DNA of 64,000 bases, from IMG/VR virus record IMGVR_UViG_3300045988_140636; one strand, given 5' to 3'. Source of the stretch: a virus. Position numbers and translations under genes: made by a program. Below the pieces are notes generated by a model. It saw only the letters and a list, made by a program, of their open reading frames with translations. It was not told the DNA's origin and ran no database searches. Within the stretch, counting starts at the first letter, position 1; every line of letters starts with the position of its first letter. Positions 4,985-60,579 of this stretch are shown here, piece by piece.

Positions 4985-5364
4985 TTTCATAATTTTATGA
5001 AACATATCTAACTATTAAAAAACAACAGAAATGGCAGGAAAATTAGGAAAATTCCAGATGGTAGGTTTCCAACATTGGAAGGGTTGACTCACAAGTTAAG
5101 CCCTTGTAAAATTGGGTAAAATCGGTGAAGCCCTCCAAATAAAATTAAAGGGTAATACCGAGCTAACCTTTATAATAATATATAAAGGTAGTGTAACGCA
5201 TAGAAGATGAAACTATGATTAGAAAAGCATGTATTTATAATCACATAGAATATAATTCTTCCACGAGTATCCAACATACTGAATAGTATGAAAATGTATG
5301 CTGAACTTACACAATGGTAAAGTGTAAGAACTAAGAGATAAAAAGCTCTCAGGATAACAGATTG
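4985..5364 (+). ncRNA. candidate minimal (endonuclease-free) group I intron upstream of structural-gene exon; 5' boundary unresolved
   Basis: 5' part (5141-5215) is collinear with the 5' part of the GIY-YIG intron (shared ggtaataccgagctaac ... tagtgta ... gaaact); 3' end gataacagattg| matches the TAACAnnnTG| 3' ends of the other introns; putative P7 shows compensatory change (R-like acgcata / S-like tatgc). Confidence 0.35.
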
Positions 5365-6214
5365 TTAACAAAAGAGAACCACTTGGGTTCTATCTTCCAA
5401 TTAGCTCCACAAAAAGCTACCAACCTTATGGTTCAATTGCTTGCCTATTACAGAGGTAAAACCCTTGACACATTCCTAAATCAGTTCCCAGTTAGAGAAT
5501 TTGAAGATGATACTGAGTATTACTGGGATGTAATAGGTTCTTCAAGGAGAAATATTCCTCTTGTAGAGGCAAGAGATGAGAATGGCACTCCTGTTACTGC
5601 AGGAAGCCCTAATGTTGGTGTTGGTACTACTCCTTTTTATTTAGTCTTCCCTGAAGACTGGTTTGCTGATGGAGAAGTAATTGTTGGTCATTTGAACCAA
5701 GTATATCCATTCAGAATACTAGGTGACCCCAGAATGGAGGGAACTAATGCGGTGTACAAAGTTGAGCTGATGGGAGGTAATACTGCAGGATGCCCTGCAG
5801 AGAGACTCCTTGCAGGGGAAAGATTCTCTGTAGATTTCGCTCCAGTAGAGAAGGAATTATCAAGGAAAGTAGGTGATGTTAGATTCACTAGTCCTGTTTC
5901 CATGAGAAATGAGTGGTCTACAATAAGAATTCAACATAAGGTTCCAGGTTCTGCTCTTACAAAGAAACTTGCTGTGGGCATACCTATGACTAAAGCAACT
6001 GAGAACGGAGGACTTACCAAGTCTATAGCTACAATGTGGATGCATAATGTAGATTGGGAAGTTGAACAACAATTCTCTGAATACAAAAACAATGCTCTTG
6101 CGTTTGGTACTTCTAACAGAAATTCCAATGGGGAGTATATGAATATCGGTAAATCAGGCAATGCGATTAAGACAGGTGCTGGTTTAAAGGCTCAAATAGG
6201 CCAGCTAGCTGCAT
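5365..6214 (+). CDS. capsid-sized structural protein (major capsid protein candidate), exon A; ORF-track start 5362 is a TTG at the intron 3' end, not a real start
   Basis: Long ORF ending with T of TAA at 6214 where a group I intron begins (t|aagcag); spliced product ~500 aa with its own terminator; true N-terminus unresolved (possibly internal ATG ~5428 or an upstream exon). Confidence 0.5.
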
Positions 6215-7099
6215 AAGCAGTCAAGAAATTAAAATTAACAAAACTAAGTCGGTGGAAGTCCTGAGATGGATAATACCGAGCTAACTATAGGAACTAAAAA
6301 GCTTATAGTAGTGTAGAGACTAGAGGTTGAAACTCTTTATATTATGACTAAATATGGTAGAATCTATATAATAAGAAATACTATAAATAATAAGGTTTAT
6401 ATAGGACAGACTAAAGTAAGCTTAAAATTGAGATTTCAAAATCATTTATCTGCTGCAAGAAATAACAAAGATTATGTTATAGGTAAAGCGATAAGAAAAT
6501 ATGGTGAAGAAAACTTTTATATAGAATTACTTGAAGAGTGTACTATAGAAGAACTTAATGATAGAGAAAAGTATTGGATTTCTTATTTTAATTCTACTGA
6601 TAATAAATTTGGTTATAATATGTCTATTGGGGGTAATGTTATTAGAACCACTAAAGAATTAGACAAGGACTTAATAATAAACATGTTTAATTCTGGGATT
6701 CCAGCATATAAAATAGCTAAAATTTTGCATACTGGAGTACCTAATATTACTAGTCTATTAAAGAGATCTAATATAATTTATGGCTTAGGTTTGCAAAAGA
6801 CTAATAAACTTGAGGAGTCTATGATAATAGATTTATATTTAGATGGTTATAGTACAGTAGACATAGGAAAAAAGTTTGGTAAAAATAAGAGTACGATAAG
6901 AAGAATACTCTTGAGGAATGATATTAAACTTAGAGCCTTTAAAGAGACTAAAAACTTGGGAAGAGATCTCCCAACATTACAATAGTAATGCTCCACGAGA
7001 GTTTTGCATTTAGATGTGGTAATCTAAATGAATATATAGTCCGAACTTCATAGTAATATGAAGAAATAGTGGATAAAGAGCCACTATGATAACATAATG
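6215..7099 (+). ncRNA. group I intron containing GIY-YIG homing endonuclease gene
   Basis: 5' part with ataccgagctaac and R-like gtgtagagactagagg (6305-6320); S element aatatatagtccgaac at 7025-7040; P9-like hairpins ttcatagtaatatgaa and atagtggataaagagccactat; ends gataacataatg| at 7099. Confidence 0.7.
6344..6985 (+). CDS. GIY-YIG homing endonuclease (I-TevI-like) with C-terminal DNA-binding region, intron-encoded
   Basis: YGRIYIIRNTINNKVYIGQT ... R ... E ... N motifs of GIY-YIG; located between intron core elements. Confidence 0.8.
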   Translation: MTKYGRIYIIRNTINNKVYIGQTKVSLKLRFQNHLSAARNNKDYVIGKAIRKYGEENFYIELLEECTIEELNDREKYWISYFNSTDNKFGYNMSIGGNVIRTTKELDKDLIINMFNSGIPAYKIAKILHTGVPNITSLLKRSNIIYGLGLQKTNKLEESMIIDLYLDGYSTVDIGKKFGKNKSTIRRILLRNDIKLRAFKETKNLGRDLPTLQ

Positions 7100-7600
7100 T
7101 ATTTGAGCAAATGGAAGTAGCTAATACTATGTATTATAATACTTTCAGCTTGAAACTTCTTGAAGATGCCTTGTATGAATTATCTGCATCCAAGTTGGAT
7201 TTTGGTGATAGATATTTCTTAATCAAAACAGGTGAAAGAGGAGCTATCCAATTCCATAAAGCTGTATTGAATGTAGTTTCAGGTTGGACCCAATTTGTAT
7301 TGGATAACAGTTCTACTAGAGTAGTAGAGAAAACCCAGTCTAGATTACATACAAATGCATTGTCTGCAGGATTCCAATTTGTCGAGTACAAAGCTCCCAA
7401 TGGAGTCAGAGTTAAAATTGATGTAGATCCTATGTATGATGATCCAGTTAGAAATAAGATACTTCATCCTCTTGGAGGAGTGGCTTATTCCTACAGATAT
7501 GATATTATGTATATCGGAACAATGGATCAGCCGAATATCTTTAAGTGTAAGATTAAAGGTGATACAGAATATAGAGGGTATCAATGGGGGTTAACGGCGT
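7100..7600 (+). CDS. capsid-sized structural protein, exon B (joins exon A in frame: ...GQLAA-L-FEQMEVANTMYY...)
   Basis: 3' splice after g7099; one nt from exon A (t6214) plus ta 7100-7101 gives Leu codon; exon ends at T7600 of TAA where next intron starts (t|aagcc). Confidence 0.55.
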
Positions 7601-8433
7601 AAGCCTTTACACATTTCTCAGCTCCCAAAGTTCTCCCCTAGAAACAGAAGTAGAGCTAGTAAAGAAAAACAAGGTTAATTGCTGGAAGTTCCTTAGAGCT
7701 TTCACTGCTTTTTAAACTTCAAACATTTAAATATGGAAGTTAAAGAATTATGGAAGCCTCTGCTAGAATATAAAGGCATAGAGGTAAGCTCAATTGGTAG
7801 AATAAGAAAAGCTGCTAATAAGAGTAGAAAAGAGAGAATCTTGACTGAATTTCCTAAAGATAGAGATGGTTACTACAGATGCTCTGTGCAAAGACTTGAT
7901 GGAACATGGACTTCTCAACCAGTCCATAGATTAGTTGCCAAAGCATTTATCCCTAGAACTAAGAATAGAGATATAGTTAATCATATAGATGGGAATAGAA
8001 CTAATAACAGAATAGAAAATCTTGAATGGGTAACTCCAAAAGAAAATGTCATTCATTCATTTAAATTTGGTTCAAGAAAAATTTGTAAACAAGTTCCCAA
8101 GAAGACTATTCTAACAGATTTCCAAGTTAATCAGATAGGGAAATTAAGAGAATTATATACAGTCAATCAAATAGCTAAACTTTTTAATATAGAATATCAG
8201 TCTCTCAAAAATATAATTCATAAAAAGAAACAATGTGAAAGATTGGATGATCAGCAGCCAAGCATATATACTAGTGTATATGAAGGTTCAGAGACTATCC
8301 CAGATGGGAGTAAGTAGTAAGTACTACTGAAACGCCTTGCTCACTTAATATTAAGTGATGAAGATATAGTCCGAACTCTAATGAAAGTTAGAGATAATAC
8401 ATGGAAACGATGTATTAGCAACATAAAAAAAAT
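7601..8433 (+). ncRNA. group I intron containing HNH homing endonuclease gene
   Basis: P-like ggttaattgctggaag at ~7674-7689; S element gaagatatagtccgaac at 8346-8365; hairpins tctaatgaaagttaga and aatacatggaaacgatgtatt; ends aacataaaaaaaatg| at 8433. Confidence 0.7.
7733..8317 (+). CDS. HNH homing endonuclease (NUMOD4-HNH_3-HTH architecture), intron-encoded
   Basis: [10 protein letters not shown]...[26 protein letters not shown] core; N-terminal SIGRIR NUMOD4-like; C-terminal helix-turn-helix-like repeats. Confidence 0.8.
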
Positions 8434-8582
8434 GTGAGAAATCCTTTTACAGGACAGAAGGGTAATCCCTATATGTCTTTTGATGAGGACTCGGCAGTTA
8501 TTCATAGAATGGCCACTTTAGGTATCTGTGTTCTTGATCCTACGAGAACTATGTCAATTATTCCTGCTATACTGCAGGGTTA
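8434..8582 (+). CDS. capsid-sized structural protein, exon C (49 codons, ...DPTRTMSIIPAILQG*)
   Basis: Frame restored by t7600 + tg 8434-8435 (Leu); open to TAA 8580-8582; strong terminator immediately downstream. Confidence 0.5.
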
Positions 8583-8588
8583 ATATAA

Positions 8589-8619
8589 TGGGAGTAGGTA
8601 CTCCTACTCCCTATTTTTT
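8589..8619 (+). terminator. rho-independent terminator (gggagtagg tact cctactccc + T-run)
   Basis: Perfect 9-bp GC-rich stem then tattttttt; 6 nt after inferred exon C stop. Confidence 0.7.
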
Positions 8620-8634
8620 TAGAAAGGAGAAGAT

Positions 8635-9675
8635 ATGGCAAAAAATAAAGTAGAAGAAAATATAAATTACGAGACACCTGAATTTGAAATAGATGAAGAT
8701 TCTATCAGAGAAGTCTCTATGAGAGAGGTTTCAAAGTTGCATCACAATCTTGAAGGAGAGAGCAATGCTTCTGAAGTGTTGGAGAAATCTAACACTGTAA
8801 AGAATAATGCTCTAATTAATTGTTTGAGAAAAGAGAGAGTTATAGTAAGACATATACCAAAAGAAGGAGGAATGATCACAAACCCCAAACATGTGTTATA
8901 TGGAGGAATGGCTGAAAGTGCTAGCAGAACATTCGTAGTTCCTAGATTATCTTCTGGTATGTTTGTAAATGTTCTTACAGATGCTGAGAAAGCTTTTCTA
9001 GAGGAAATTATGGGGCTTGAATATAACTCATTAAGTATCTACAAGAAAGTCGATAATTTCTGGGATGACTCTAACGAAAATGGAATTTCAAAGGTAACAT
9101 TGAAGAAGCAAGATAATTATTTTGATTTATCTAACCCGGAGGATTATATAAGATATAAGATACTACTAGCCAATAAAGATTTTATCGCTTCTTCATTACA
9201 GGAATTACAGGACCATCCAAAAGCTACCTATCAGTTTGTTATTGTAACAGAAGGTGATGAGATTAAATCTGCTAGAGGAAATATGAGTAATACTATGAGA
9301 TGCTATAAGGAATTCGGTAAGGTAGAAAATGATATAGATACATTAAGAGTAATAATAGAATCTATAGACGGAAGACCTACATCTCCCACTGCTAAACTGG
9401 AATTTTTGCAAACGAAAATTAATAGTCTTATTCAAGCAGACAGCAAACTCTTTTTAAGAGTGATTACTGATCCCCTGCTTAGTACTAAGGTTCTTATAAA
9501 GAAAAGTATTGAAGCAGGCCTCATTTCAAGTAGAGGAAACTATTTATACTTGAAGAGTGATAATACTCCCCTATGTGAGATTAATGAGGAACCTACTCTG
9601 AATATAGCTGCTAGATTCCTTAATTCTCCTAAGCATCAGGAATTGAAATTTTCTTTAGAAGCAAAGTTAAAATAG
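8635..9675 (+). CDS. virion/structural-module protein (346 aa), function unknown
   Basis: ORF with aggagaagat Shine-Dalgarno-like spacing before ATG; part of + strand structural operon. Confidence 0.45.
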   Translation: MAKNKVEENINYETPEFEIDEDSIREVSMREVSKLHHNLEGESNASEVLEKSNTVKNNALINCLRKERVIVRHIPKEGGMITNPKHVLYGGMAESASRTFVVPRLSSGMFVNVLTDAEKAFLEEIMGLEYNSLSIYKKVDNFWDDSNENGISKVTLKKQDNYFDLSNPEDYIRYKILLANKDFIASSLQELQDHPKATYQFVIVTEGDEIKSARGNMSNTMRCYKEFGKVENDIDTLRVIIESIDGRPTSPTAKLEFLQTKINSLIQADSKLFLRVITDPLLSTKVLIKKSIEAGLISSRGNYLYLKSDNTPLCEINEEPTLNIAARFLNSPKHQELKFSLEAKLK

Positions 9676-29400: not shown

Positions 29401-30632
29401 TTCCTAATGGTAATTCAATTACTCTTATTAAGAATGACCCAATGACTCTTACTGAACAGCAAGCTAAGGATACTATCAGGAAGATACTTAATGGTAATCC
29501 TCAGAGAGTGCTAGATATATCAAATGAGAAAACTCTTATATTCGATCCTTCATCTGCTCCTGCAGTTGAAGTACCTAAACCTGAGACTCCTGCTAATATA
29601 TTATCCACCTCTACTGAGTCTGGAGCAGCTAAAACAGCACAAGCTGAACAAACAGTAAACAATAGAAAGGCTTCTAGAACTAGACATAAGTTAAGAGAAG
29701 TAGATAATAAAACAAGAGATGTTTGGAATCAAGAAAAGGAACTTGCATGGGTAAGAAAGATACTTCCTCAATTATCAGAAGATAATAGAATAAGAGTGGT
29801 AAAAGGTCTCATTAGAGTTGGTAGCCAAGGAACTTTAGCTTGGGGGCAATTTAACAATGGTATAGTTACTCTATCTGATATAGCTGCAGAAGGAACTGTC
29901 TATCATGAAGCATTCCATGTTGTCTTCAACCTCCTTCTGGACCAAACAGAAAGGCAAGGATTATTAGCTGAGGCTAGAGAAATGTACGGAGATAAATCTG
30001 AGTTAGATCTTGAAGAAGATATGGCAGAAGGCTTCAGAGAATATATGCAAACTAGACAAGCTAAAGGGCTTTTTGATAGGATAAAAAATTTCTTCAGAGA
30101 CCTATATGTAAAAGTAACAAATTGGAATAGGGTACAGCCACATCTTATTGCTTATTATCAGATGATAAATGAGGGCAAATATGCTGGAGATAACCTTAAT
30201 ATTTTCTCAATTAATCAATCTAGGAATAGAATAGTGTCTCCAGAAGAGCTAGAAAAAGCATTGAATGATGAATTCAAGAAGGCTAATGAAGAATTAAGAA
30301 AACTCAATTATAAAACTTATTATACTGTAGATGCAGCAATGAGAGCCTTTCGTAATAGTAATATAAGAGAAGCATTTTTATATAGAATTACTAGAGAAGG
30401 AGCCAATAATGCTGTAGGTCATAAGATTCAACTATTAACTGTCCCAATGTTTAATAGATATAAGGAAAGAGAATTGAACAGACTTAGAAAATCTACAGGA
30501 ATTGAGTTGTTATTTGATTCTTTAGATTCAGATATTCAAATGCAGTTACTTAATAAGGGATGGACTAAAGAGCAATTTGACTCTATCTCTATAGCCGAGA
30601 GAGATCAAGCTATTGCATGTCTAGCCATCTGA
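23469..30632 (+). CDS. giant virion protein (2387 aa) with C-terminal HExxH zinc-metallopeptidase-like motif (VYHEAFHVVFN)
   Basis: Single 7.2 kb ORF; HEAFH motif near aa ~2150; followed by bidirectional terminator. Confidence 0.5.
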   Translation: MANGINDPSKRGISGLKGLNTTEGINRYLDELGYSRSIPEYKMRKAASPEPIIQEVGEVGVGDSYFDRGITSLTQLQDLENTRGELQPWYSQISNGLAKGAVLAGTTFLNGTLGLLFGAETAIEEGRWSGLWDNPFDKALQSVNEWAEEALPNYYTREEQEGPWYDNIFTANFIGDKFIKNLGFAVGAFYGGSLISKTLKLTRLPQIIGTITKSSKAPKLVTSGVGVVASAVNESIMEALNNSTDWFNLQKAQIDDDYTSRLDAIGQSYVRGENGTITLTGNIKEFSLALQEAHSSSISRLTEDRLKMGNMDLLMNLPILTASNIIQFGKMYANGFKTARKATNIVGEAGEYTTKRTIGRGVAKSTMVALSEGLEEISQAAASRISGNYYEDDVNNFYKAKIDPQAEQETLSWIKSSAQGINETVNDGSSWEEFFIGTLTGALGIPKFRGVRSSDGRLQSPITLEGGIHGRFREYMDKINRETEIVNYMNNRVQSPEFKNYYQGLIRHNKYQTDMNQAVEENNEFEFKNAEYAQLVSDIAMFDNAGKLEDLTTLINAAYDTSDENLASIVENTTSTITDESGKEVKVGPFIDRNGNPMYSTPEGKQEMIDKLTQTKDEMLNTITNYTKIKDDIDVRTGQQLNDEQLEELTWLKAQIGNWQDRANQLSSEIKPTIGTILGSMSQLANMYNSVKTEEGRAHAGLTDLYNSADKNERQIRKNMSILETVRNLDDKTFTYLLSKDPKLVEGIKSVVESPLSGVAADDAQVFNEKIDDIVKLVNATANYNTKLKEYLENPTKLQEDIVSSTEEVAKKKSKRKSDNLKSKLLSATNLSEFRQALNEEEDIAIKEETLKSLEDEGNEMSKNYEETNSYNTEVQRVINSLNESPDVKMDALKLLQDQFENSSNLEEIANPNSIYIDNSYALYDDNLTLEENTIKFQEAQYALLRAMNQVNNENRFKNRFSQDYRTLREKGKPNPSAPTKDTTGDSETSTIPSVDTGGFPVTTYEPPAGNITSTQVRDENKETNDRIETPQSLDSKQKGKRPYYRPSIPELHIQASKEGDFRPFNIVAAEREHGVNFDELYNYLKGNGAFTYVNESNLKVGDELGFMIDPEFNDHTIFIVDRRNNQIVGSLDESDYSVSRYEGLAGLEEKIKAEFTQRGDKTKKFIATPTTRVSQIMVGRIPYSTEERSLANIPNVLGEGREPIFGIIKNGTLSTNGKIDDSLIIKPVDMAQKEGRMYLLIPNAAGKYSPAALRVKHFNKTEFNPDDIEIQSAQMYKNIQESIEALANSLSEDDLNNAVKSLSTNLYTGDLHIDWFTSDAGNGIRFTKVQRDAQGNEIYEEKDGKRIRKETVKTVFLTEKWDQNTLYSIIGDKEIQTGPALKNIDDISKEIREILLDFNLLLQVNLGMLNKGGYNNMLINSNVLTSNISDARVISSWFTTDYFDIEGNLHQAISPASISPDTTRKIETPVGGTEGVITGTKVVIDGVTYGVDLTTGIIYDSNNQRIYPENAQLISDLAWANANFGDATNGSLIWNNKILLPSGQVLDRGTQKYLTGENAQKVKDKIAGRERTVGDSKKVIAQIAENQKKVDKARTDSEFYYILEEDGQYHAYERVHNRLGSNWVESKKQSDSLKDIRVKLSQLSDNVTQYNNYLKYLGNHWKVDLSAFSGKIDVRNRDTIVNIIRDSMSETKSQRALNAGTAVDSVIRNFFTSNDTPIRPDNMNEKAFADLISSLTEIRSNIESRGERFLTNNIVLFQKYADGTRVAGEVDILSVDADGNFRIYDVKTSRYSFYDFIDRYGNKVNYFTNPSATQRISTRDYYTLQLSAYKNLFESQYHAPVTTLAILPFVTSYNKDIVEGVTKEKGIIITYNPSVNVPLVGAVKASEPTSTNSTVPVFNSALETQDPINNVLPEYSLEDSKVGYFVRDSKLHKSYLTPIGKVNGVDVYMAKIPNITKGFGRQGEEAHVASNSYMAIFPNGNSITLIKNDPMTLTEQQAKDTIRKILNGNPQRVLDISNEKTLIFDPSSAPAVEVPKPETPANILSTSTESGAAKTAQAEQTVNNRKASRTRHKLREVDNKTRDVWNQEKELAWVRKILPQLSEDNRIRVVKGLIRVGSQGTLAWGQFNNGIVTLSDIAAEGTVYHEAFHVVFNLLLDQTERQGLLAEAREMYGDKSELDLEEDMAEGFREYMQTRQAKGLFDRIKNFFRDLYVKVTNWNRVQPHLIAYYQMINEGKYAGDNLNIFSINQSRNRIVSPEELEKALNDEFKKANEELRKLNYKTYYTVDAAMRAFRNSNIREAFLYRITREGANNAVGHKIQLLTVPMFNRYKERELNRLRKSTGIELLFDSLDSDIQMQLLNKGWTKEQFDSISIAERDQAIACLAI

Positions 30633-30664
30633 ACATTATGGTGAAATTTTTTATTAGGGAGAAA

Positions 30665-30702
30665 GCAAAAAAAAAGGAGGAATATTGTTCCTCCTTTTTT
30701 TA
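30665..30702. terminator. bidirectional intrinsic terminator between convergent genes (A-run, aggaggaa tattg ttcctcct, T-run)
   Basis: 8-bp stem flanked by aaaaaaaaa and ttttttt; sits between + gene end 30632 and - gene end 30731. Confidence 0.65.
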
Positions 30703-34774: not shown

Positions 34775-37630
34775 TTAACTTAATAAATTTATTGTACCAC
34801 AAATACTGTCACCATTTTCATCTCTATAATCTACATTAGGCTGAATAGACGTTACATCATTTTCTGAACCTGAGGGAATTTCAAGGGAAGAGCCATATAT
34901 ATCTTCATAAGCCTGTCTTAATGCATCCTCACTAAAGGCCTCTCTGTACATTTCAGAATAAGCCAAATCCTCTTCTGTCATTTGAGGAGTTTCATAAGAA
35001 GTAACTGCTTCATCAATAACAGCATTAGGATTATAACCTTTCTTGTTCTTATCAATTACAGAAGTCATTTCACTTGCTTCCTTACCATACTCATATTCAA
35101 TAAAGCTATTCTTGAATCCAAGTGGCTCAATCCTTCTATAGACGGCTACATTAGACTCTTCAACTCTATCTGCAGTTAATCTGTAATAAATATAGTTACC
35201 TTTGTTTCTTCTTGCAATGAAATCAAAGAAGTCATATACAGGACCATCAGGAGTATCTATTCTCTTCTTGATGATTTTTTTATCCCCAAAATTAGCATTT
35301 TCATCTATTACAAATGTAACTTCATCCTTAATCCCATTATCTTCACCTCTAAATAAAGTTGAAGCATCATCAGGAATTTCAGGAACAAGCTTTCTATTAT
35401 CAAGATGATTGTAGACATACTGTTCAACAAAGTCACTATAGTCATCCTCGGATGTAAGGAGACTTCTTAGTGTTTCAATATACTCTGGAACTGCACTTCT
35501 TACAGCTACAGGAGCTAAATGAATAAAGGTATTAGGACCAAATGCAAAGCCATTTCTGTAGAAGCTGTATCTGAATAAGTTAAGAGCAAGCTTTTGAGCT
35601 TCTGGGTTACTCATATATAATAGAGAAGTCCAGTCTCTCATATATCTTTCTCTTAGAGTGGGACTCAATTGACCAACATTCTTAAACACCACAGTGTCCA
35701 CAGGATTTGTATCATTTGCCCTTATCACTCTAAGTCTCTTAATAAACTCAAGGTCAGCTATATCCTCATTCTCTGCAACCACTTTCTTGAAGTAAGTTGG
35801 GAAATTATTGATGAAGTCCCTTCTCTTGTCAGCAGATGTAATCATCTTTGTAGGATTACCATTCTCATCTACTGAACTCCAATCAGGTTCTGCACCAAAG
35901 AAATCTGTCTTAGACATTATATAAGCAAGCAAATCATTGTAAATACTATTCATAGTCTTCACATTTAATCTACCTGTCTTTGTCATGTTTCTAAGAACAT
36001 CAACTACCTCATCAAATGACTCAGTGAATTGAGGGAAATACTTGCTTAACATTCTCTCTGATTGCTTCAATCCAAGTGTGTAGAATGCCTGTAAGAAAGG
36101 CAATTTACTTGCAAGCAATTGCTCTCTTATGTTGTCAATGTCATCATTAAGAGAAATACTGTCACTGATTACATCTGCCCCTACAAGTGGAAACTTGTCA
36201 TTCTCCTCCATATCTTTCAAGAAGTCTTGAACCTTTTGGATTTTGAGCTTTGTATCAGCAATAGTTGGACCTGCTGCACCACCTTGAGTATCAGACCTTG
36301 TAGCTTGCACAAGCTGACCAAGGCTATCAGCAGTTCTCATTATTCTCTTAAATAGGAATCCTACAGCAACTTGTTTCTTATAGAACTCAACCTTACTGTA
36401 ATCAGAAGTCTGATGGGCACTTGTGATGCCTGCCATTTCCTTTGCAATAAGGATGTTGTTGGCAAGGTCTTCAATTAGGAAGTCATTATTCTTATAGTTA
36501 TCATAAGTAACTTCTTCCATCATTGCAGCCTTCTTCTTATATTCTACAAGGATTTCATCAATCACAGTGTCCTTACCTTTACCTTCTCTACTCTCCCTAA
36601 AATAAGTCTGGGTAATATCCATAACAATAGGTTGTGTCATAAGCAAACCTATCTCAATAGGGTTATAACCTAGTCTTGAAAGAAGCATAGAAGCATCAGC
36701 AGTGAATGTATTTTGGTTAATACCAGCCAACACAGGATCTTTCACATTATCCACAGATGCAGCCAAGAAACCTGCATTATTCTTTGATATAAACTCTTTG
36801 TCTTCATTCATAATGTTATGTAAAGAAATAAGTCTCTTCCCATTCAATATAAATGAGCCATTCTCTACATCAAGGCCTAATTCAGTATGTTGCATTAAAG
36901 CATGATTAGCATTATGATTTGCATATATACCTATCAGTTTTGCACCAGTCATATTCTGTTGATGAAGTTGTACTTGAGTTCTTGGAGAAATAGGGTCAAG
37001 TCTTTTCTTAGTTTTTTCAGTAAGCCTATCAAGTTCTTTTAAATCCATTGAAAGTAACTTAGTAATAATCGAGCCATCAGAAATATTTAAGTCTCTTTTT
37101 AAATCTGATTCATAGCTCGAACTAAGAATACTAATAATTCTTGCAGCTTTCTTTTGATAATCAAAACCACCTGGGTTAAGAATCTTAGAGGCTGTATCTG
37201 TATTCGTTAGAACTCCCCACATCATATCTATCATCAAGTTGTTTCTTGCTTCAAGACTATTTTCTTGTGGAGTTTTATTAAAGTCATACTTTACTTTTCT
37301 AATCTTGTATGTATCAAGTCTGTACTTTTCCTTGTTTTCTTCAAACCATTTCTTAAACTCTACAGGTGCATTTGCAAAGTCCTCTAATAGATTTCCTGCC
37401 CTAAATAAGGTAGCTAATTCATCAAGTATTTCTTGCTCACCTTTAAAGTCCTGTTTTGCTCTTCTGAAGTCAAACTTATCTACCTTGAATTCAGGAAGCA
37501 TAATATACATCTTATCCACATCAAAGTCAGAACCTGACAGAGTGGTAATCTCAGCAGGAAGCATAATTGCAGAACCATTCTGTTGAGGTAAGAATCCTTT
37601 GATATACAAAGGAGCCATTGAGTACTTATC
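34775..37630 (-). CDS. virion-packaged RNA polymerase candidate (crAss-type, DFDVD motif), exon 2; precise 3' splice site within ~37625-37640 unresolved; ORF-track start 37696 is a GTG inside the intron
   Basis: Frame open from intron 3' region; SGSDFDVDKMY motif resembles DxDxD catalytic motif of crAss-like virion RNAP; S element and P9 hairpins lie at 37640-37716 so true exon starts downstream of annotated M. Confidence 0.5.
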   Translation of the reverse strand, partial: DKYSMAPLYIKGFLPQQNGSAIMLPAEITTLSGSDFDVDKMYIMLPEFKVDKFDFRRAKQDFKGEQEILDELATLFRAGNLLEDFANAPVEFKKWFEENKEKYRLDTYKIRKVKYDFNKTPQENSLEARNNLMIDMMWGVLTNTDTASKILNPGGFDYQKKAARIISILSSSYESDLKRDLNISDGSIITKLLSMDLKELDRLTEKTKKRLDPISPRTQVQLHQQNMTGAKLIGIYANHNANHALMQHTELGLDVENGSFILNGKRLISLHNIMNEDKEFISKNNAGFLAASVDNVKDPVLAGINQNTFTADASMLLSRLGYNPIEIGLLMTQPIVMDITQTYFRESREGKGKDTVIDEILVEYKKKAAMMEEVTYDNYKNNDFLIEDLANNILIAKEMAGITSAHQTSDYSKVEFYKKQVAVGFLFKRIMRTADSLGQLVQATRSDTQGGAAGPTIADTKLKIQKVQDFLKDMEENDKFPLVGADVISDSISLNDDIDNIREQLLASKLPFLQAFYTLGLKQSERMLSKYFPQFTESFDEVVDVLRNMTKTGRLNVKTMNSIYNDLLAYIMSKTDFFGAEPDWSSVDENGNPTKMITSADKRRDFINNFPTYFKKVVAENEDIADLEFIKRLRVIRANDTNPVDTVVFKNVGQLSPTLRERYMRDWTSLLYMSNPEAQKLALNLFRYSFYRNGFAFGPNTFIHLAPVAVRSAVPEYIETLRSLLTSEDDYSDFVEQYVYNHLDNRKLVPEIPDDASTLFRGEDNGIKDEVTFVIDENANFGDKKIIKKRIDTPDGPVYDFFDFIARRNKGNYIYYRLTADRVEESNVAVYRRIEPLGFKNSFIEYEYGKEASEMTSVIDKNKKGYNPNAVIDEAVTSYETPQMTEEDLAYSEMYREAFSEDALRQAYEDIYGSSLEIPSGSENDVTSIQPNVDYRDENGDSICGTINLLS

Positions 37631-38540
37631 TTCAGTTGGTTGTTTTGTTATCTTACAGATGTTTATTCTGTAATTCTTTATGTTTCCATAAAGCACGGAC
37701 TATATCTTCATCCTATAAGGATGTTGGGCACTCGTGGGTATATTATATTCTATTTTCATAGTTTCAATACCTAGTCTCTGAACCTTTTATAACCATTTAA
37801 GTTATAACTTGGCTGCTGATTGTCCCTACTTATTGAATTGTCACACACTTGCATATTCCCAGTAATAACCATATCTTTTCTGATGAGTTTTAATACCACT
37901 AATTATGTTAGCATCTTTCCTAATATTTCCTAATTGTCTGGCAGCTTCTCTAATAGATTGGTAAGTATTTATAATATTACCATCATTATCTATTTGATTA
38001 ATCTGTCTTTTATTAGGATTAGATTCTCTAAGTTTTAATCCTATTTTAACTGCTTTATTTCCATAACAGTTATTATAAGACTTAGTACACCATTCAAGAT
38101 TTTCTACAGAATTATTAGTCTTATTTTCATCTTTGTGGTTTATACATTCCAAATTGTTAGGATTTGGAATAAAAGTATCAGCTACTATTCTATGTACTGC
38201 AATAGTTCTTTTCTTGTTAGTGTCATCGTATAATTTCACTATAGGATAGCCACTACTATCAAGTACTGAGGATAAAGGTTTCAAAATGTTACCTTGTCTA
38301 TAACTAAATACTTTACCACTTTTAGTTACTTTATAGCTTGGATATTCTCCAAATCTACTTTTAATATTAAATAGTTCTTCTTCCATATAATGTTTTTGTG
38401 TAGATTTATATGTGCAAAGATACTATAAATATTTGAATTATGCAAATTTTGTATCAATAATCTAACAGGATGTTCCAGCAATTCACCCAATTTATTATTC
38501 TTTAGTATTACTACTAAAGCGAGTCCCAATCTTTCGATTA
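37631..38540 (-). ncRNA. group I intron with HNH homing endonuclease inserted between P and Q elements (boundaries approximate)
   Basis: Minus-strand reading: P gggtgaattgctggaac (38496-38480), Q caatcagcagcc (37822-37811), R ggttcagagactagg (~37785-37771), S gaagatatagtccgtg (37716-37701), P9 hairpin ctttatggaaacataaag; exon 1 ORF stop at 38538-38540. Confidence 0.65.
37841..38386 (-). CDS. HNH homing endonuclease (HNH_3/NUMOD), intron-encoded
   Basis: AVHRIVADTFIPNP...INHKDENKTNNSVENLEWCT HNH signature. Confidence 0.8.
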   Translation of the reverse strand: MEEELFNIKSRFGEYPSYKVTKSGKVFSYRQGNILKPLSSVLDSSGYPIVKLYDDTNKKRTIAVHRIVADTFIPNPNNLECINHKDENKTNNSVENLEWCTKSYNNCYGNKAVKIGLKLRESNPNKRQINQIDNDGNIINTYQSIREAARQLGNIRKDANIISGIKTHQKRYGYYWEYASV

Positions 38541-41500
38541 AACTCTATAACCAATCAACTTCCTAAGATCTTTAGGAAGTTTGGTAATATCAAGTTCATG
38601 AGTTCCTTCCTTCATAAGGGGTTCATAGAACTCTCTTGAATAAGCTGGCATGTAACATTCAAGATATTTAATTCTCTTGTTCTCACCTTCCCCTTCAAAT
38701 ACCACATGAAGTTCATCAGTTAAGCCATAATCAGATACCTGAATCAATGCTCCACCTCTAATCTTCTGTTTGGTGATTTTGCTCTTGATGATACTATTAA
38801 GAAGAGTCTGTACTCTTTGAGATTGTACAGGATCAAATAATGGAATATTGAACTGACCATTCTCATTAAGGGTACAGGCTCTGACCATATCAATTCCATA
38901 TCTCTGATTACCTCTAATCTCTTCAAGTAGTGCCTCCTCTATCTTCTTAGGGTCTTTGAATATATCATTCACATTCTTGAATGCTTGCAAGATATTCTCA
39001 GTATTGATTGCATTATACAGGTCCAGCCATTCCTGCTTGGTCATTTTCTTACCATCAACCTCAATGATAGCATCTGATGCAATATCAGCAGTAATCAACT
39101 TTCTAATCTGAGTACCTACAAGCTGCACAGCATCAATAGCATGTTCAGGAGTTGCAGTCTGAATACCATAATCTTCATAGCTTATTTTATGTACTACATT
39201 AGGATTCTCAATACCATTAGGCATAGTAGTATTCTTCAATACCTCCTTTACTTGCCTGAAGTCACTAACCTCGTTAAGGTCAATAACACCTTGCTTCCCG
39301 ACTTTAGTAGTAGATTCAAATTGAACTACATCAATATTGTTCTCTTCCATGAATTCATTAATAGCTTTAAGCTTGCTTGATTTACTAAGTGGACCAGCTA
39401 TTAACTCATGCATGGCAAGTAATAAGAATTCAGAGTTCTTATGCTGTACAGGAGTCTTAATACCAGTATGACCTTCTACACCACTCATGTTGCTAATTTG
39501 GGTATATACATAAGGTTTCTTAGTCTGCCAGATGATATTAAAGTCAGCAATGTTCCAAGTACCATTTTTGAAATTATTATATGCCTGCTCCATCTCATCT
39601 GTCCATTGGCCAGACATACCAAGTATTGCTCTATAGGAGCTTAAACTTCTATAAGCCTGTGCATCTGCAACATTAACTGCCTTAAACTTGTTAATAATAT
39701 TATCTCTATCCATCTTGGGCATTTCACCTTTCTTAACTCTCTCATCAAGAACTGTTTCAATATCACTCAGTACTGAAGATACAACCTCATCATCCTTCAA
39801 GTAGATAGTTCTTTCCCAATCTCTACCAATTCTTTCTCCCTTATAAGTAGCTTTGGTATTCATTCTAAGAGCTGGGGCATGAACCTCCTTATATCTCTTC
39901 TGAAAGTCCTCTACATTCTTATAGAAAGCTAAGTCGGTAGTAGTTAACTCAATAATTTGAGAAGTAGCTAATTTACTATTCCAGTAATACTCTCTTAATG
40001 CAGCTTTTGTATTATTCTTTACTATAAGGTTTTTGTTAATACTATCTGCTTCTTGTTTAGTAATATCTCCTCTTATAGACTTCTGATTTATTAAGTCTTT
40101 AATTTGTTGGAACAAATCTGTAGCAACTCTATCATCTACTGGATTATTGTTGTTATAATCTTTCAATAACAACTCCATATCAGTAGTCCATAAAGTAGTA
40201 CCAAGGATTTCTTTAGCTTTGATAAGAGACTTTGCAGTTCTTGAGTTCTGCTGTGATTGACCTGCAAAAGGTAAGTACTTATACTTTCCATTTGGTAACT
40301 CATCAAATAAACCAATTCTTGCCCAGTCTCTATATGCCTCTTCAAAGCCATTATCCATAACTTCTCTAAGAGTATCTCTAATGAATTCCTTTAACTCAGC
40401 ACCACTGCCTTCCCTGCTCAATCTACTCAATCTGTCAAGGAATGTTTCTCCATTATTATATCTAATGGAATTAAGTGCAGGTAAGAACTTAAACTCAGCT
40501 CCCCCTATACTCTTAATACTTCCATCCTTCTTCCTGGAAATATCATAGTTTGCTATAGGGGAGATGTTTGGATTATTATTCTGAAATTCCTCATCTCTTG
40601 CTCTGACAAGCATTATTCTGTCATATTCTTGATTGACTAAATCAGTTAGTTTATCAAGGATAATATCATCATAAGTCAGCTTGTTCCCATTCTCATCATA
40701 TTCAACTCCACTTACATATTTTCTGAATCTAATGAATTCAGCAGAAGGAGAATCTGAAAGAATAGGGACATGATACCAGGCCCACTTCACACTTGTTCTA
40801 CTATCTTCTGGGTCTCCCCAATATTCAGTAAGAAGTGCTAAGGTATAATCTAAGTCATCCCAGTTAGTGTAGTCCACTTTATCAGAGTTCAATACTACTT
40901 TATGATTTAGGCCTCTTCTCATTTCCTCAGAGTTAACCAGTTGCTCTAACCAGTCACTTCTCCATCTCCCATCTTTAAAGAACCACTCATATTGCTTAAA
41001 CTCAGTATTAATAAATTCTTCAAATCTCTTCCTATCTCCTCTTACATTCTTAAGCTGTTTAATTAACTTTCCAAGATAATTTGGGGTGACATGAGAGTAA
41101 TAAGACTTATCATTCTCTCTAACACTACTTTCAATAGCATCTTCAGTTACATTAGCCATCATATTTGCAATCGCACTATAAGCTGAACCAAATGTATTGA
41201 TTAAGTCTCCTCTCTTCTCTATTCCATCTTCTCCTGTTTCTGACTTTATTTCCCCCTTCTTGATTCCTTTGAATATAATATTCAATTGAGGTAGTAGGAC
41301 CATAATAGGGTCAGTAAACTTAGCTGTATCAGAAGTTCTAATATCAGTTAGTGCATTTCTTAATATAGAGGGATTGGCATCAATACCAATCATATTCAAC
41401 AGCTTTAGTATAGTTTTCCAGATCCTATCATCCTCAAGAAGTTCTAATCTTGCTTCAGTATCCAAATTAGAGAATTTATTGTTTAGAGTTTCGACCCACT

Positions 41501-42890
41501 TAAGACCTTTTTCAGCATTTTCAATATTTATGTCCCCATTCTTCTCATATACACTATCATTATCAAGTTGCATACCATTCTCATAGTTATCTCTCCAAGC
41601 ATCAAGAAGGTAATATACACCTTCAGGCTTGTTAATAGCAATGGTTTGCATCTTGAATGTACCATCAAGCATCGTCTTTTTCTTCTGGATCCAATAGGGT
41701 ACGAAATCCTTTCTGAAATCTTGATAGAATTGAGAAAATAGCGTATCATCCTCCTCAAGCAATTCTCTTACTTGAGTCACCCAAGGTTTATTCCTTTCGA
41801 GCCCCTGTATAAGAGGGATCATATCTTCAGAAGTAATCATATCTCTCAACTTGTCGATAAGAGTTGCATGAACATAATCAGCATCTAAATACCTTAGATT
41901 ACCCAAATCATCTTCCTTATACATTCCTTCATAGTCAAGCCTGGGTATTTCCCTAATAACTTTTCTAACTGCTTGAGATAAAGATTCATGGGAACTAACT
42001 TGTCTAAAGTTAGTCATCCAGCCATCTTTAAAAGTCTCTTCCTTATTATAATCATCAGCTTGCTCATCAAGCTCACTGTATCCTTCAGGAGTATCATCAT
42101 TTAAGTTAGCATCTTTAGGAGCACTATAGTTCAAGTCAATTCTAACTCCTTCTGTCATTACGAGTAATGTGCTAGCTTCTTCTGCCAAAGGTTTAAAGTT
42201 ATCAACAACTTTTCTATAAGCTTGTTCCTTATATACAGCTTTTCTTCTTGCAGCATCCAATTTTTGTTCATCAGAGAATCTTTCAGATTCATCTATAACA
42301 CCCTCATCAATTAATGTCTGCTCTCTTGCATTTATTGCCCCAAGTTCAATTTGTACTCTATTCTCTTCTGTATCGTTGATATAGGATTGAAATATATCCA
42401 ATACTCTGTCAAATAATCCAGCAGGGGTGTATTTCTTTATGGCATCAAATCTATTAAGGGAGCTTAACTCCATCTGTAATTGTAATCTTTCTTCATCAGA
42501 AGCTGTATCCATTCTCTTATTAAGAGAATCATTCATTTCCTGTAGTGCTTTATCTACCTCATTACTAAAGAATCTAGCAATAAGGCTTACTCTATCTCTT
42601 CTAGTTCTTGGGTCAAAGTCTAAATCAACCTTAGCTTGCTCTTCAATAGAAGAGATCTTAGGAGTGTCAAATGAAGTAGATAATGCTTCATCAAGCATTT
42701 CTATTGTATCTGCACTTCTGAGTTTAAATCTGAAATCATTAAGTTCCTTTGCAGAAGGATACTCTTCAATAGATTTATTATTCTCTTTTTGCCATAAAGC
42801 TACAAGGCCCTTTACAGATTCTTCTGTCTCACCTTGTAACTTCTCAGTTAAGTGCCTAATCTCTTTAGTTGCTACTAAACAATTATTCAT
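38541..42890 (-). CDS. virion-packaged RNA polymerase candidate, exon 1 (1450 aa); together with exon 2 ~2400 aa
   Basis: Long ORF ending ...KLIGYRV immediately before intron core; promoter-like TAccTTTG 30 nt upstream of ATG. Confidence 0.5.
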
Positions 42891-59649: not shown

Positions 59650-60579
59650 CAATTTGTTACCCCAAAGGCTCTTTATCCTTTGGTTCTATATATTACTATA
59701 TAGTTCGGACTATATCTTCATTGTTTCCAATGCAGGGCACTCGTGTCAGGTTTATTATTTGAGCTATTCACCTGTTAGTCTCTGAACCTTCTACATACTT
59801 TTATGCTCTTCTGTAGCTTGGCTGCTGATTGACTCATTAAGTTGTTCCAGCAATTCACCCTGTTTATCCAGAACCCTTCTTTTACTATAAGTAATTAGTT
59901 TATATTGCATGGATGGAATAATATAATCTTTAATTAGTTCTACAAACTTAGGAAAATCCTTAGCTTGTAGATACATACTATTATCATGTTTGCCTACAGT
60001 AAAATGTAAGTCAAATTTATTTAATAATATGTTAGCTAACAAAAGCTGTTCTTCAAGAGTAAATGAACAAGTAGATAAGGTACATGAATTTTTAGTTACA
60101 TAACCATCATCCATATACCATATAGCCAAACCTAAAGCATCTATATCTTTTACAAATTCTTCAAAGATTCTTTTATGTCCATTAGAGTCATAATATTTTA
60201 ATCTTATATTTGTAAAAATAGGATGTAATCTAGATTTAAATCTATATCCAACTAATTCATGTAAATATCTTTTATTATTTACATGATATTCAACTATAGG
60301 AGATACTAAGTTATATTTATTTAGTATCTCCCATTTATACTCAAGATATTCTTTTTGTTTTTCAGAGTGCGCTATACTAAGACACATATTTTTAGCTGTT
60401 TTTCCTACTGAACAAAAACATCCATCACCTAACAAACTTCCTATAAGAAGTTGTCTTAGATCATTTTCTACTTTAATTTCCTTGTAATTCTTCATACCAT
60501 TAAGAATTTGGCACAAAGATAAGGTATTTGACCTAATATTGCAATATTCTAGTTAAATTATTTATAGATTATTACCAAA
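59650..60579 (-). ncRNA. group I intron with LAGLIDADG homing endonuclease, splitting the UDG GQD|PY motif
   Basis: Minus-strand P gggtgaattgctggaac (59849-59833), Q caatcagcagcc (59830-59819), R ggttcagagactaac (~59798-59784), S gaagatatagtccgaact (59721-59704), P9 hairpins; 5' splice after caggat|. Confidence 0.7.
59791..60516 (-). CDS. LAGLIDADG homing endonuclease (double-motif), intron-encoded; C-terminus overlaps intron P/Q elements
   Basis: LLIGSLLGDGCF and LAIWYMDDGYV motifs. Confidence 0.75.
   Translation of the reverse strand: MCQILNGMKNYKEIKVENDLRQLLIGSLLGDGCFCSVGKTAKNMCLSIAHSEKQKEYLEYKWEILNKYNLVSPIVEYHVNNKRYLHELVGYRFKSRLHPIFTNIRLKYYDSNGHKRIFEEFVKDIDALGLAIWYMDDGYVTKNSCTLSTCSFTLEEQLLLANILLNKFDLHFTVGKHDNSMYLQAKDFPKFVELIKDYIIPSMQYKLITYSKRRVLDKQGELLEQLNESISSQATEEHKSM

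Follow-up and report, generated by a model that had tools for sequence, protein, structure and literature searches.

A predicted group I intron with a terminal adenosine in the RNA polymerase gene of a crAss-like phage

Results

An apparently interrupted RNA polymerase gene

We analyzed a 64,000-nt stretch of viral DNA (IMG/VR record IMGVR_UViG_3300045988_140636; hereafter the window), in which two long open reading frames (ORFs) on the minus strand, of 1450 and 973 aa, are probably the two exons of one crAss-like RNA polymerase gene, separated by a group I intron that carries an HNH homing endonuclease gene (HEG). An intron in a crAss-like phage gene is a finding of a known type; the unusual part is that this intron ends in an adenosine. 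A preliminary description of the region had read the two ORFs, at 38538..42890 (ATG start) and 34775..37696 (GTG start), as parts of a giant gene of about 2400 aa, and both ORFs are found at these positions. The main predicted features are as follows.

38541..42890, minus strand: RNA polymerase exon 1, 1450 codons, ending ...LIGYRV
37640..38540, minus strand: group I intron, IA-like, 901 nt, an exact insertion relative to intron-less alleles
37841..38386, minus strand: HNH homing endonuclease gene, 181 aa, I-HmuI-like, in the P5 loop between P and Q
34775..37639, minus strand: RNA polymerase exon 2, 954 codons plus stop, beginning PTEDKYSMAPLY
37514..37528, minus strand: DFDVD codons (DxDxD metal-binding motif; DFDID in the aligned phi14:2 gp66)

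The boundaries of the insertion were set by blastn of the window against the intron-less genome of the uncultured phage cr128_1 (Crassvirales, Steigviridae, Asinivirinae), which shares 92.5% DNA identity with the region, and in which the homologue is one uninterrupted coding sequence (7296 nt, 2431 aa) annotated as “putative RNA polymerase.” The comparison revealed a clean insertion of 901 nt, with contiguous subject coordinates (4431 then 4432): exon 1 ends ...GGUUAUAGAGUU at 38541 and exon 2 starts CCAACUGAAG at 37639, giving the splice junction U38541|C37639. An intron-less allele from another contig (L253), 99.5-99.6% identical over 1000 nt on each side, has the same boundaries. The mapping method is sound, since the intron in the uracil-DNA glycosylase (UDG) gene of the window (see below), mapped likewise against cr128_1, ends in the usual G. 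The 3′ splice sites that had been proposed earlier, at ∼37634, 37631, and 37626, have to be abandoned, as the site lies between 37640 and 37639; presumably they came from looking for a terminal G, which is absent at the end of this intron.

Both exons are open throughout (1450 and 954 codons), and joined they encode a protein of 2404 aa; the apparent stop of the 1450-aa ORF (UAA, 38540..38538) consists of intron bases 1-3. Using phmmer, we found that a 721-aa segment spanning the junction matches the phi14:2 gp66 DNA-dependent RNA polymerase (PDB 6VR4) with an E value of 6.7e-27, and that the alignment is unbroken at the junction (LIGYRV|PTEDKYSMAPLYIKGFLP in the window, IGYRI|PNQGQSSNDPLQIVGILP in gp66); exon 2 alone matches 6VR4 with an E value of 7.5e-20. 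On the gp66 side, the alignment with the joined protein extends over residues ∼1106-1724 and takes in both IGYR(V/I)P and SGSDFD(V/I)DKMY. The junction itself reads LIGYRV|PTEDKYS, so that the intron lies inside the conserved IGYR(V/I)|P motif. The DFDVD motif, described earlier as lying about 40 residues past the junction, occupies residues 38-42 after it (SGSDFDVDKMY in the window opposite TGSDFDIDKMY in 6VR4; in wider context, SGSDFDVDKMYIMLP is aligned to TGSDFDIDKMYVMLP). These matches bear out the earlier assignment of the gene to the crAss type, and support the prediction that it encodes a single-subunit RNA polymerase similar to phi14:2 gp66. Virion packaging and transcription of early genes are established, according to the summary in Yutin et al. 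(PMC7886860), for phi14:2 only; the window polymerase may likewise be packaged.

Ribozyme core and fold

Sequence comparison supports the prediction that the interruption is a self-splicing group I intron of an IA-like type. The Rfam model RF00028 matches the minus strand at 37676..37919 (54.4 bits, gathering score 50, E 4.8e-11), and the core elements P, Q, R, and S, together with the P9 hairpins, are present as the preliminary description had noted. The structural elements, all on the minus strand, are listed here in 5′ to 3′ order of the transcript.

38521..38545, minus strand: P1 hairpin, exon GAGUU (38545..38541) with guide GACUC (38525..38521)
38500..38519, minus strand: P2 hairpin, double changes in 5 of 8 pairs
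38473..38490, minus strand: P3 5′ strand (UUGGGU) and P element (38483..38473; J3/4 plus P4 5′ strand, AAUUGCUGGAA)
37822..38471, minus strand: P5 with P5a/P5b extension, its terminal loop containing the endonuclease gene
37811..37821, minus strand: Q element (P4 3′ strand)
37787..37807, minus strand: P6 hairpin, double changes in 7 of 8 pairs
37772..37784, minus strand: R element, P7 5′ strand (GGUUCAGAGACUA), containing the G of the G-binding G-C pair
37737..37771, minus strand: P7.1/P7.2 hairpin between P7 and P3′, a hallmark of subgroup IA, double changes in 4 of 5 outer pairs
37709..37729, minus strand: P3 3′ strand (GCCCAA) and P8 hairpin
37697..37708, minus strand: S element, P7 3′ strand (AAGAUAUAGUCC)
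37694..37696, minus strand: J7/9 “GUG,” the false GTG start of the 973-aa ORF
37653..37693, minus strand: P9 (37693..37676, GAAA loop) and P9.2 (37673..37653) hairpins
37640..37652, minus strand: intron 3′ tail, G-AUAACAAAA-CA-A, with A37640 as the last intron nucleotide

The GTG of the 973-aa ORF (37696..37694) had already been suspected of being spurious, and indeed it is J7/9, directly after S, where the 5′ strand of P9.0 is also found. The Rfam alignment of the window puts the 5′ third of the intron (P3-P5) on the 3′ end of the HEG ORF, whereas the true P1-P5 region is at 38545..38461; this is shown by two family members that lack the HEG (L046, 100 bits; L028, 77.8 bits), whose Rfam matches start at P1, and which close the P5 arm with a short loop. 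The fold was derived from such HEG-less homologues and a manual structure instead of the Rfam alignment of the window. We aligned 13 family members, with the endonuclease segment removed, to a hand-drawn structure comprising P1, P2, P3, P4, P5/5a/5b, P6, P7, P7.1/7.2, P8, P9.0, P9, and P9.2. Standard pairs are formed in 96.2% of the alignment cells, as compared to 36-44% in slid controls, a percentage that is inflated because the structure was derived from the same sequences; less sensitive to this is the number of pairs with changes on both sides, which is 34 versus 6-8 in the slid controls. None of 500 shuffles reached the observed values for four of the five measures (for the fifth, a count of further pair types, 5 of 500 did). 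P3, P4, and P7 are invariant in these members, and P5a, P6, and P8 contain compensatory changes.

The U38541.G38525 wobble at the 5′ splice site is U.G in all 13 sequences, and the neighboring exon/guide pair covaries (GC in nine sequences, AU in three, GU in one), so that the P1 variants are GAGUU/GACUC, GAAUU/GAUUC, and one G.U intermediate; the upper stem of P1 is capped by a GAAA loop. On the guide, P10 is contiguous with P1: exon-2 CCAA (37639..37636) pairs with UUGG (38529..38526), and two members with a variant P1 loop (L046 and L111) retain a 5-bp P10 (CAACU/AGUUG) with the same exon. In P9.0, U37695 and G37694 of J7/9 pair with A37641 and C37642; the U-A pair is found in 12 sequences, and is replaced by C-G in L015. 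The R (GGUUCAGAGACUA) and S (AAGAUAUAGUCC) elements are invariant in the family; the G-binding pair within P7 (the G-C next to the bulged base) is the one that we take to correspond, by analogy, to G264-C311 of Tetrahymena.

Exon junction and 3′ splice site

The family was recovered by searches with the endonuclease protein and with patterns of the intron DNA, and the same intron is found at the same site in many crAss-like contigs; the counts below refer to 28 distinct intron-bearing alleles (from viral and metagenome contigs, and the window itself). The first seven codons of exon 2 differ among the alleles chiefly by synonymous changes (four codons are used for Thr, both codons for each of Glu, Lys, and Tyr, and three for Ser), and PTEDKYS is kept in 26 alleles. 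The two others are L015, which reads PTEHKYS (D to H), and L145, whose exon 2 has a deletion that shifts the frame from the seventh codon on (PTEDKYH). Such mostly synonymous variation, found in 27 of the 28 alleles, indicates that these codons are translated; and since six alleles contain an in-frame UAA just upstream of exon 2, with no start codon between, translation must arrive there from exon 1. The compensatory changes in the fold, including the pairings with both exons, give indirect support to the use of the junction. We therefore consider it likely, on these comparisons, that the exons are ligated at U38541|C37639.

Some points weigh against this assignment. Exon 1 alone matched no PDB sequence, Pfam family, or PHROG; it is collinear with the “putative RNA polymerase” of cr128_1, and its identity as polymerase derives from that annotation and from the continuity of the gene. 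The covariation at P9.0 within the family comes from a single lineage (L015). In addition, studies of Tetrahymena mutants by Price and Cech in 1988 and by Been and Perrotta in 1991 reportedly imply that a terminal A should impair exon ligation when the G-C binding pair in P7 is unchanged.

Alternatively, the intron could be fully canonical and end at G37652, immediately after P9.2; the mRNA would then keep 12 bases (AUAACAAAACAA), adding Ile-Thr-Lys-Gln to the protein between RV and PTED. This G is invariant in all family members and adjoins a hairpin, as terminal Gs often do, and in the window the 12 retained bases are in frame and contain no stop. We nonetheless consider such an end unlikely: six alleles read AUA ACA UAA, with the stop in frame; the variable triplet (AAA, UAA, CAA, AUA, AAU, AAC, UCA, or UUA) changes at all codon positions, unlike coding sequence; and GAUAACA does not vary, not even where a change would be silent. 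Furthermore, the P10 partner is CCAA and not AUAAC, P9.0 sets the splice site 12 nt further downstream, about 30 introns with the same tail end in G at the position of A37640 rather than at that of G37652, and the insertion would break the IGYR(V/I)P motif shared with phi14:2 gp66.

Even less probable are the 3′ splice sites of the preliminary description, after G37633, G37630, or G37625, inside exon 2, which are the nearest Gs downstream of the ribozyme. Splicing after the first two would drop 7 or 10 nt and shift the frame away from the conserved protein; splicing after the third would remove PTEDK, which is invariant, and 18 of the 28 alleles have A in place of this G. Intron-less alleles, moreover, are collinear up to C37639.

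Another possibility is that the exons are not ligated at all, and that two polypeptides (residues 1-1450, up to the UAA of the intron, and the part from Met-8 of exon 2) assemble into the enzyme, with the intron only carrying the endonuclease gene. Cellular RNA polymerases with split large subunits are known, a terminal A should cripple the second splicing step, and 25 of the 28 alleles have an in-frame AUG (SMAPLY) eight codons into exon 2. However, the seven codons before this AUG are under clear purifying selection at the protein level in intron-bearing alleles, and three alleles have no Met-8 (there is no Met near this position in L028, the Met of L220 is at codon 9, and L145 is out of frame). 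Compensatory changes in P1, P9.0, and the ribozyme core would be pointless without splicing, and IGYRVP, a conserved motif beside the active site, would be interrupted by the split; we thus regard separate polypeptides as improbable, to nearly the same degree as an end at G37652. The least credible alternative is a decaying pseudogene in defective phage genomes. The frameshifting deletion in L145 would fit decay, but both exons are open over 1450 and 954 codons, 27 of the 28 alleles are intact with conservation at the protein level, and the contigs (∼95-100 kb) are of full-genome scale, one of them with a name that gives ∼2600x coverage. Ligation at U38541|C37639 remains the reading that we prefer.

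The terminal nucleotide

The intron ends ...GAUAACAAAACAA|CC, and the last base is A in all 28 alleles. The last 12 intron bases of these alleles are without G, apart from the next-to-last base in L015. A compensating change in the G-binding site was also looked for and not found: the relatives with a terminal G have exactly the same R and S. No shift of the boundary gives a terminal G and keeps Arg-Val-Pro, and two shifts were tried and rejected. Moving it by +1 turns Pro into Ser; moving it by -1 keeps Arg-Val-Pro, but the intron would still end in A, and the splice site would follow a Watson-Crick U-A pair. In the rRNA relatives described below, the -1 shift would also change a base that we take to be conserved.

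Related introns in other genes locate the usual end of the element. About 30 of them have the same S element, P9, and UAACA tail, and read UAACA-N3-4-CUG| when J7/9 is GAG; their G marks the position of A37640 as the usual position of the terminal G. (A search of viral contigs with the tail pattern alone gave mostly chance matches, which were filtered by requiring an upstream S element.) In these relatives the J7/9 base covaries with the next-to-last intron base as in P9.0 of the family (A/U, U/A, and C/G). One 23S rRNA intron with J7/9 GUG reads ...AACAAAACAG|AGCGAA.

Two 23S rRNA introns of bacterial genes on metagenome contigs also appear to end in A: L174/L223 ends ..CCAA|AGCGAAAUUCC, and L230 ends ..UCAA|AGCGAAAUUCC. 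Their S element, J7/9 (GUG), and P9 are the same as in the polymerase intron, and a close relative (L150) ends ..ACAG|AGCGAA, that is, in G. The exon boundary of these rRNA introns depends on the sequence GGUAGCGAAAUUCC, which we take to be conserved. It may be, therefore, that a terminal A has also appeared in this intron lineage outside phages. On balance, the evidence leans toward a clade of group I introns without a terminal guanosine and with an unchanged G-binding pocket, made up of the HNH family, which occurs in several crAss-like RNA polymerase lineages, and apparently some bacterial 23S rRNA introns (GGU|AGCGAA; L174, L230).

The terminal G has been called “universally conserved,” with the hexacoral mitochondrial intron ND5-717 named as having A (PMC8146996, PMC6545197), and a literature search for natural introns without a terminal G returned only papers on ND5-717. 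As the literature treats ND5-717, we file the RNA polymerase intron as a variant group I member, because it has no 3′-terminal G. A terminal A with an unchanged P7 pair suggests that the second splicing step relies on positioning by P9.0 and P10, or is slow, or needs a helper protein.

Endonuclease gene and distribution

The HNH gene lies between P and Q, as the preliminary description had proposed (ORF 38386..37841), and its final codons overlap the 3′ strand of P5b. Its product matches Pfam HNH_3 (33.2 bits, cut-off 24.8) and PHROG 59 (E 9e-36), and in phmmer residues 16-176 align with residues 11-170 of I-HmuI from Bacillus phage SPO1 (PDB 1U3E; E 2.7e-12). The similarity to I-HmuI is full-length, and includes the C-terminal DNA-binding region; the Pfam NUMOD-like domains taken alone are below their cut-offs in this protein.

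The intron is patchily distributed. HEG-less copies are 318 nt long in L028 and 260 nt in L046, and the 80 best of 251 relatives are intron-less. One family member is found on a 96-kb contig, whose name gives ∼2600x coverage, so that its carriers look like abundant, replicating phages. In the intron-less L253 (2779..2839, opposite window 38570..37610), three of about nine differences are synonymous and within 7 nt of the junction, where L253 reads GTC|CCGACG and the window GTT|CCAACT; one of these changes removes the U required for the splice-site wobble. They could reflect co-conversion during homing, or a cleavage-resistant target site.

Two further observations concern the loops of the intron. 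On a truncated contig (L107, 1..410, minus strand of the locus), there is no HNH gene in P5, and the loop of P7.1/P7.2 contains another ORF, ending ...LQLNVIYETK*. In the window, TTTG-N20-TATCTTTG is present inside the P5 loop at 38415..38446 (minus strand), 29 nt upstream of the HNH start codon. This pattern is conserved across the intron family, and in the UDG intron, too, TATCTTTG is found ahead of the LAGLIDADG ORF; it fits what we take to be the Bacteroides promoter consensus (TTTG / TAnnTTTG). Four matches to the Bacteroides-type promoter pattern were found in the window versus 1.4 expected, which is not an enrichment, and a promoter upstream of the HEG is only a lead.

Other introns in the window and in related genomes

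Introns were also observed at a second site of the same gene in related contigs and in the UDG gene of the window, as listed below.

L028 2675..2951 and L002 5540..6445, minus strand of each contig: second RNA polymerase intron family, inserted at SGSDFD|VDK
59650..60579, minus strand of the window: group I intron in the UDG gene, 930 nt, inside the GQD|PYP motif, mapped against cr128_1

The UDG intron has a stronger Rfam match (80.9 bits at 59686..59932, minus strand) than the RNA polymerase intron. It starts after U, ends ..UAACAAAUUG| with the usual G, and contains a LAGLIDADG-type ORF (59791..60516) near its 5′ end.

The major capsid gene (5362..8640, plus strand) looks split at least twice. 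Its ORF at 7111..7602 aligns with profile positions 290-450 (of 495) of PHROG 11589, a major head protein. Upstream lies a GIY-YIG homing endonuclease ORF (6344..6985), and downstream are an HNH ORF (7733..8317) and a group I match below threshold (8181..8393, 43.1 bits, E 1e-7). An intron in the capsid gene of the window is probable. Elsewhere, a match to the PrrB/RsmZ small RNA was found at 30569..30702 (plus strand; 31.9 bits, gathering score 44, E 0.0014), between convergent ORFs of 2387 and 1345 aa; it is probably due to chance.

Discussion

If the features described above act together, the pre-mRNA would fold into an IA-like ribozyme, in which an external guanosine would attack after U38541, held in the U.G wobble of P1. 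The freed 5′ exon would then attack the A37640-C37639 bond, positioned by P9.0 (C37642/A37641 with G37694/U37695) and P10 (CCAA with UUGG), and the spliced product would read ...LIGYRV-PTEDKY.... The HNH endonuclease might cut or nick intron-less alleles in co-infecting relatives, and repair would copy the intron in (homing). Both splicing and homing are predicted from sequence.

The finding has practical consequences for annotation: gene callers split the polymerase in two with a false GTG, where joining 42890..38541 and 37639..34775 gives the 2404-aa product, and the same correction applies to dozens of gut-phage contigs. It also reveals that the active-site region of crAss-type RNA polymerases is the target of two different mobile intron families, inserted 40 codons from each other. 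Overall, we see the intron of the window as an ordinary mobile phage element whose host gene is unusual and important. Its one unexpected feature is the last nucleotide, which is A throughout a conserved and apparently functional family, although the terminal G is described as universal and essential for exon ligation. If the clade without a terminal G is real, only P9.0, P10, and the conserved UAACA tail would set its 3′ splice site, or else splicing would require a protein cofactor; a slow second step might also throttle the output of a late virion protein. At 260 nt, the HEG-less intron of L046 is compact enough to be assayed directly in vitro.

Essential phage genes interrupted by group I introns with homing endonucleases are a classic finding. 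The window intron is similar to the SPO1 DNA polymerase intron with I-HmuI, and to the td, nrdB, and nrdD introns of T4, in being inserted in a conserved motif of an essential phage gene with an HNH gene in a peripheral loop; as for the introns of SPO1 and other phages, intron-bearing, intron-less, and HEG-less alleles coexist. It differs from the SPO1 and T4 introns in its host gene, a virion-type RNA polymerase of a Bacteroidota-infecting crAss-like phage, and in its end, since those introns end in G and this one in A. The phi14:2 gp66 chain in 6VR4 is one polypeptide of 2194 residues that aligns across the insertion site, with low similarity.

Among crAss-like phages, Yutin et al. 2021 (PMC7886860) report group I introns and endonuclease genes in core genes, mainly in the Delta and Zeta groups; according to the legend of Fig. 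3 in that paper, the transcription gene block contains a LAGLIDADG endonuclease encoded by an intron, and the alpha-gamma group is said there to be without such insertions. By contrast, the window comes from a gut crAss-like phage related to Steigviridae/Asinivirinae, with introns in its RNA polymerase and UDG genes and probably also in its capsid gene, which indicates that Steigviridae-like phages are not free of such elements. A terminal A is not mentioned in the searched passages of that paper. The DFD|VD family (bajarodcaudo virus 1, PQ006092, which is L002; and L028) interrupts the same gene ∼40 codons downstream of the window intron and splits DxDxD itself; it has a LAGLIDADG gene in L002 and none in L028, so that both the endonuclease type and the site differ from those of the window intron, and its members end in the canonical G (..AAUG|GUUGA).

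For the terminal A, the sole documented natural precedent that we found in the literature is ND5-717 of hexacoral mitochondria, in which the last nucleotide is likewise A and the exons are still ligated in vivo (PMC8146996, PMC6545197). The two differ in most other respects: ND5-717 is obligatory, strictly vertically inherited, and organellar, and a HEG is assigned only to COI-884, whereas the family described here carries a HEG, occurs in some phage genomes and not in others, and is closely related to introns with a terminal G.

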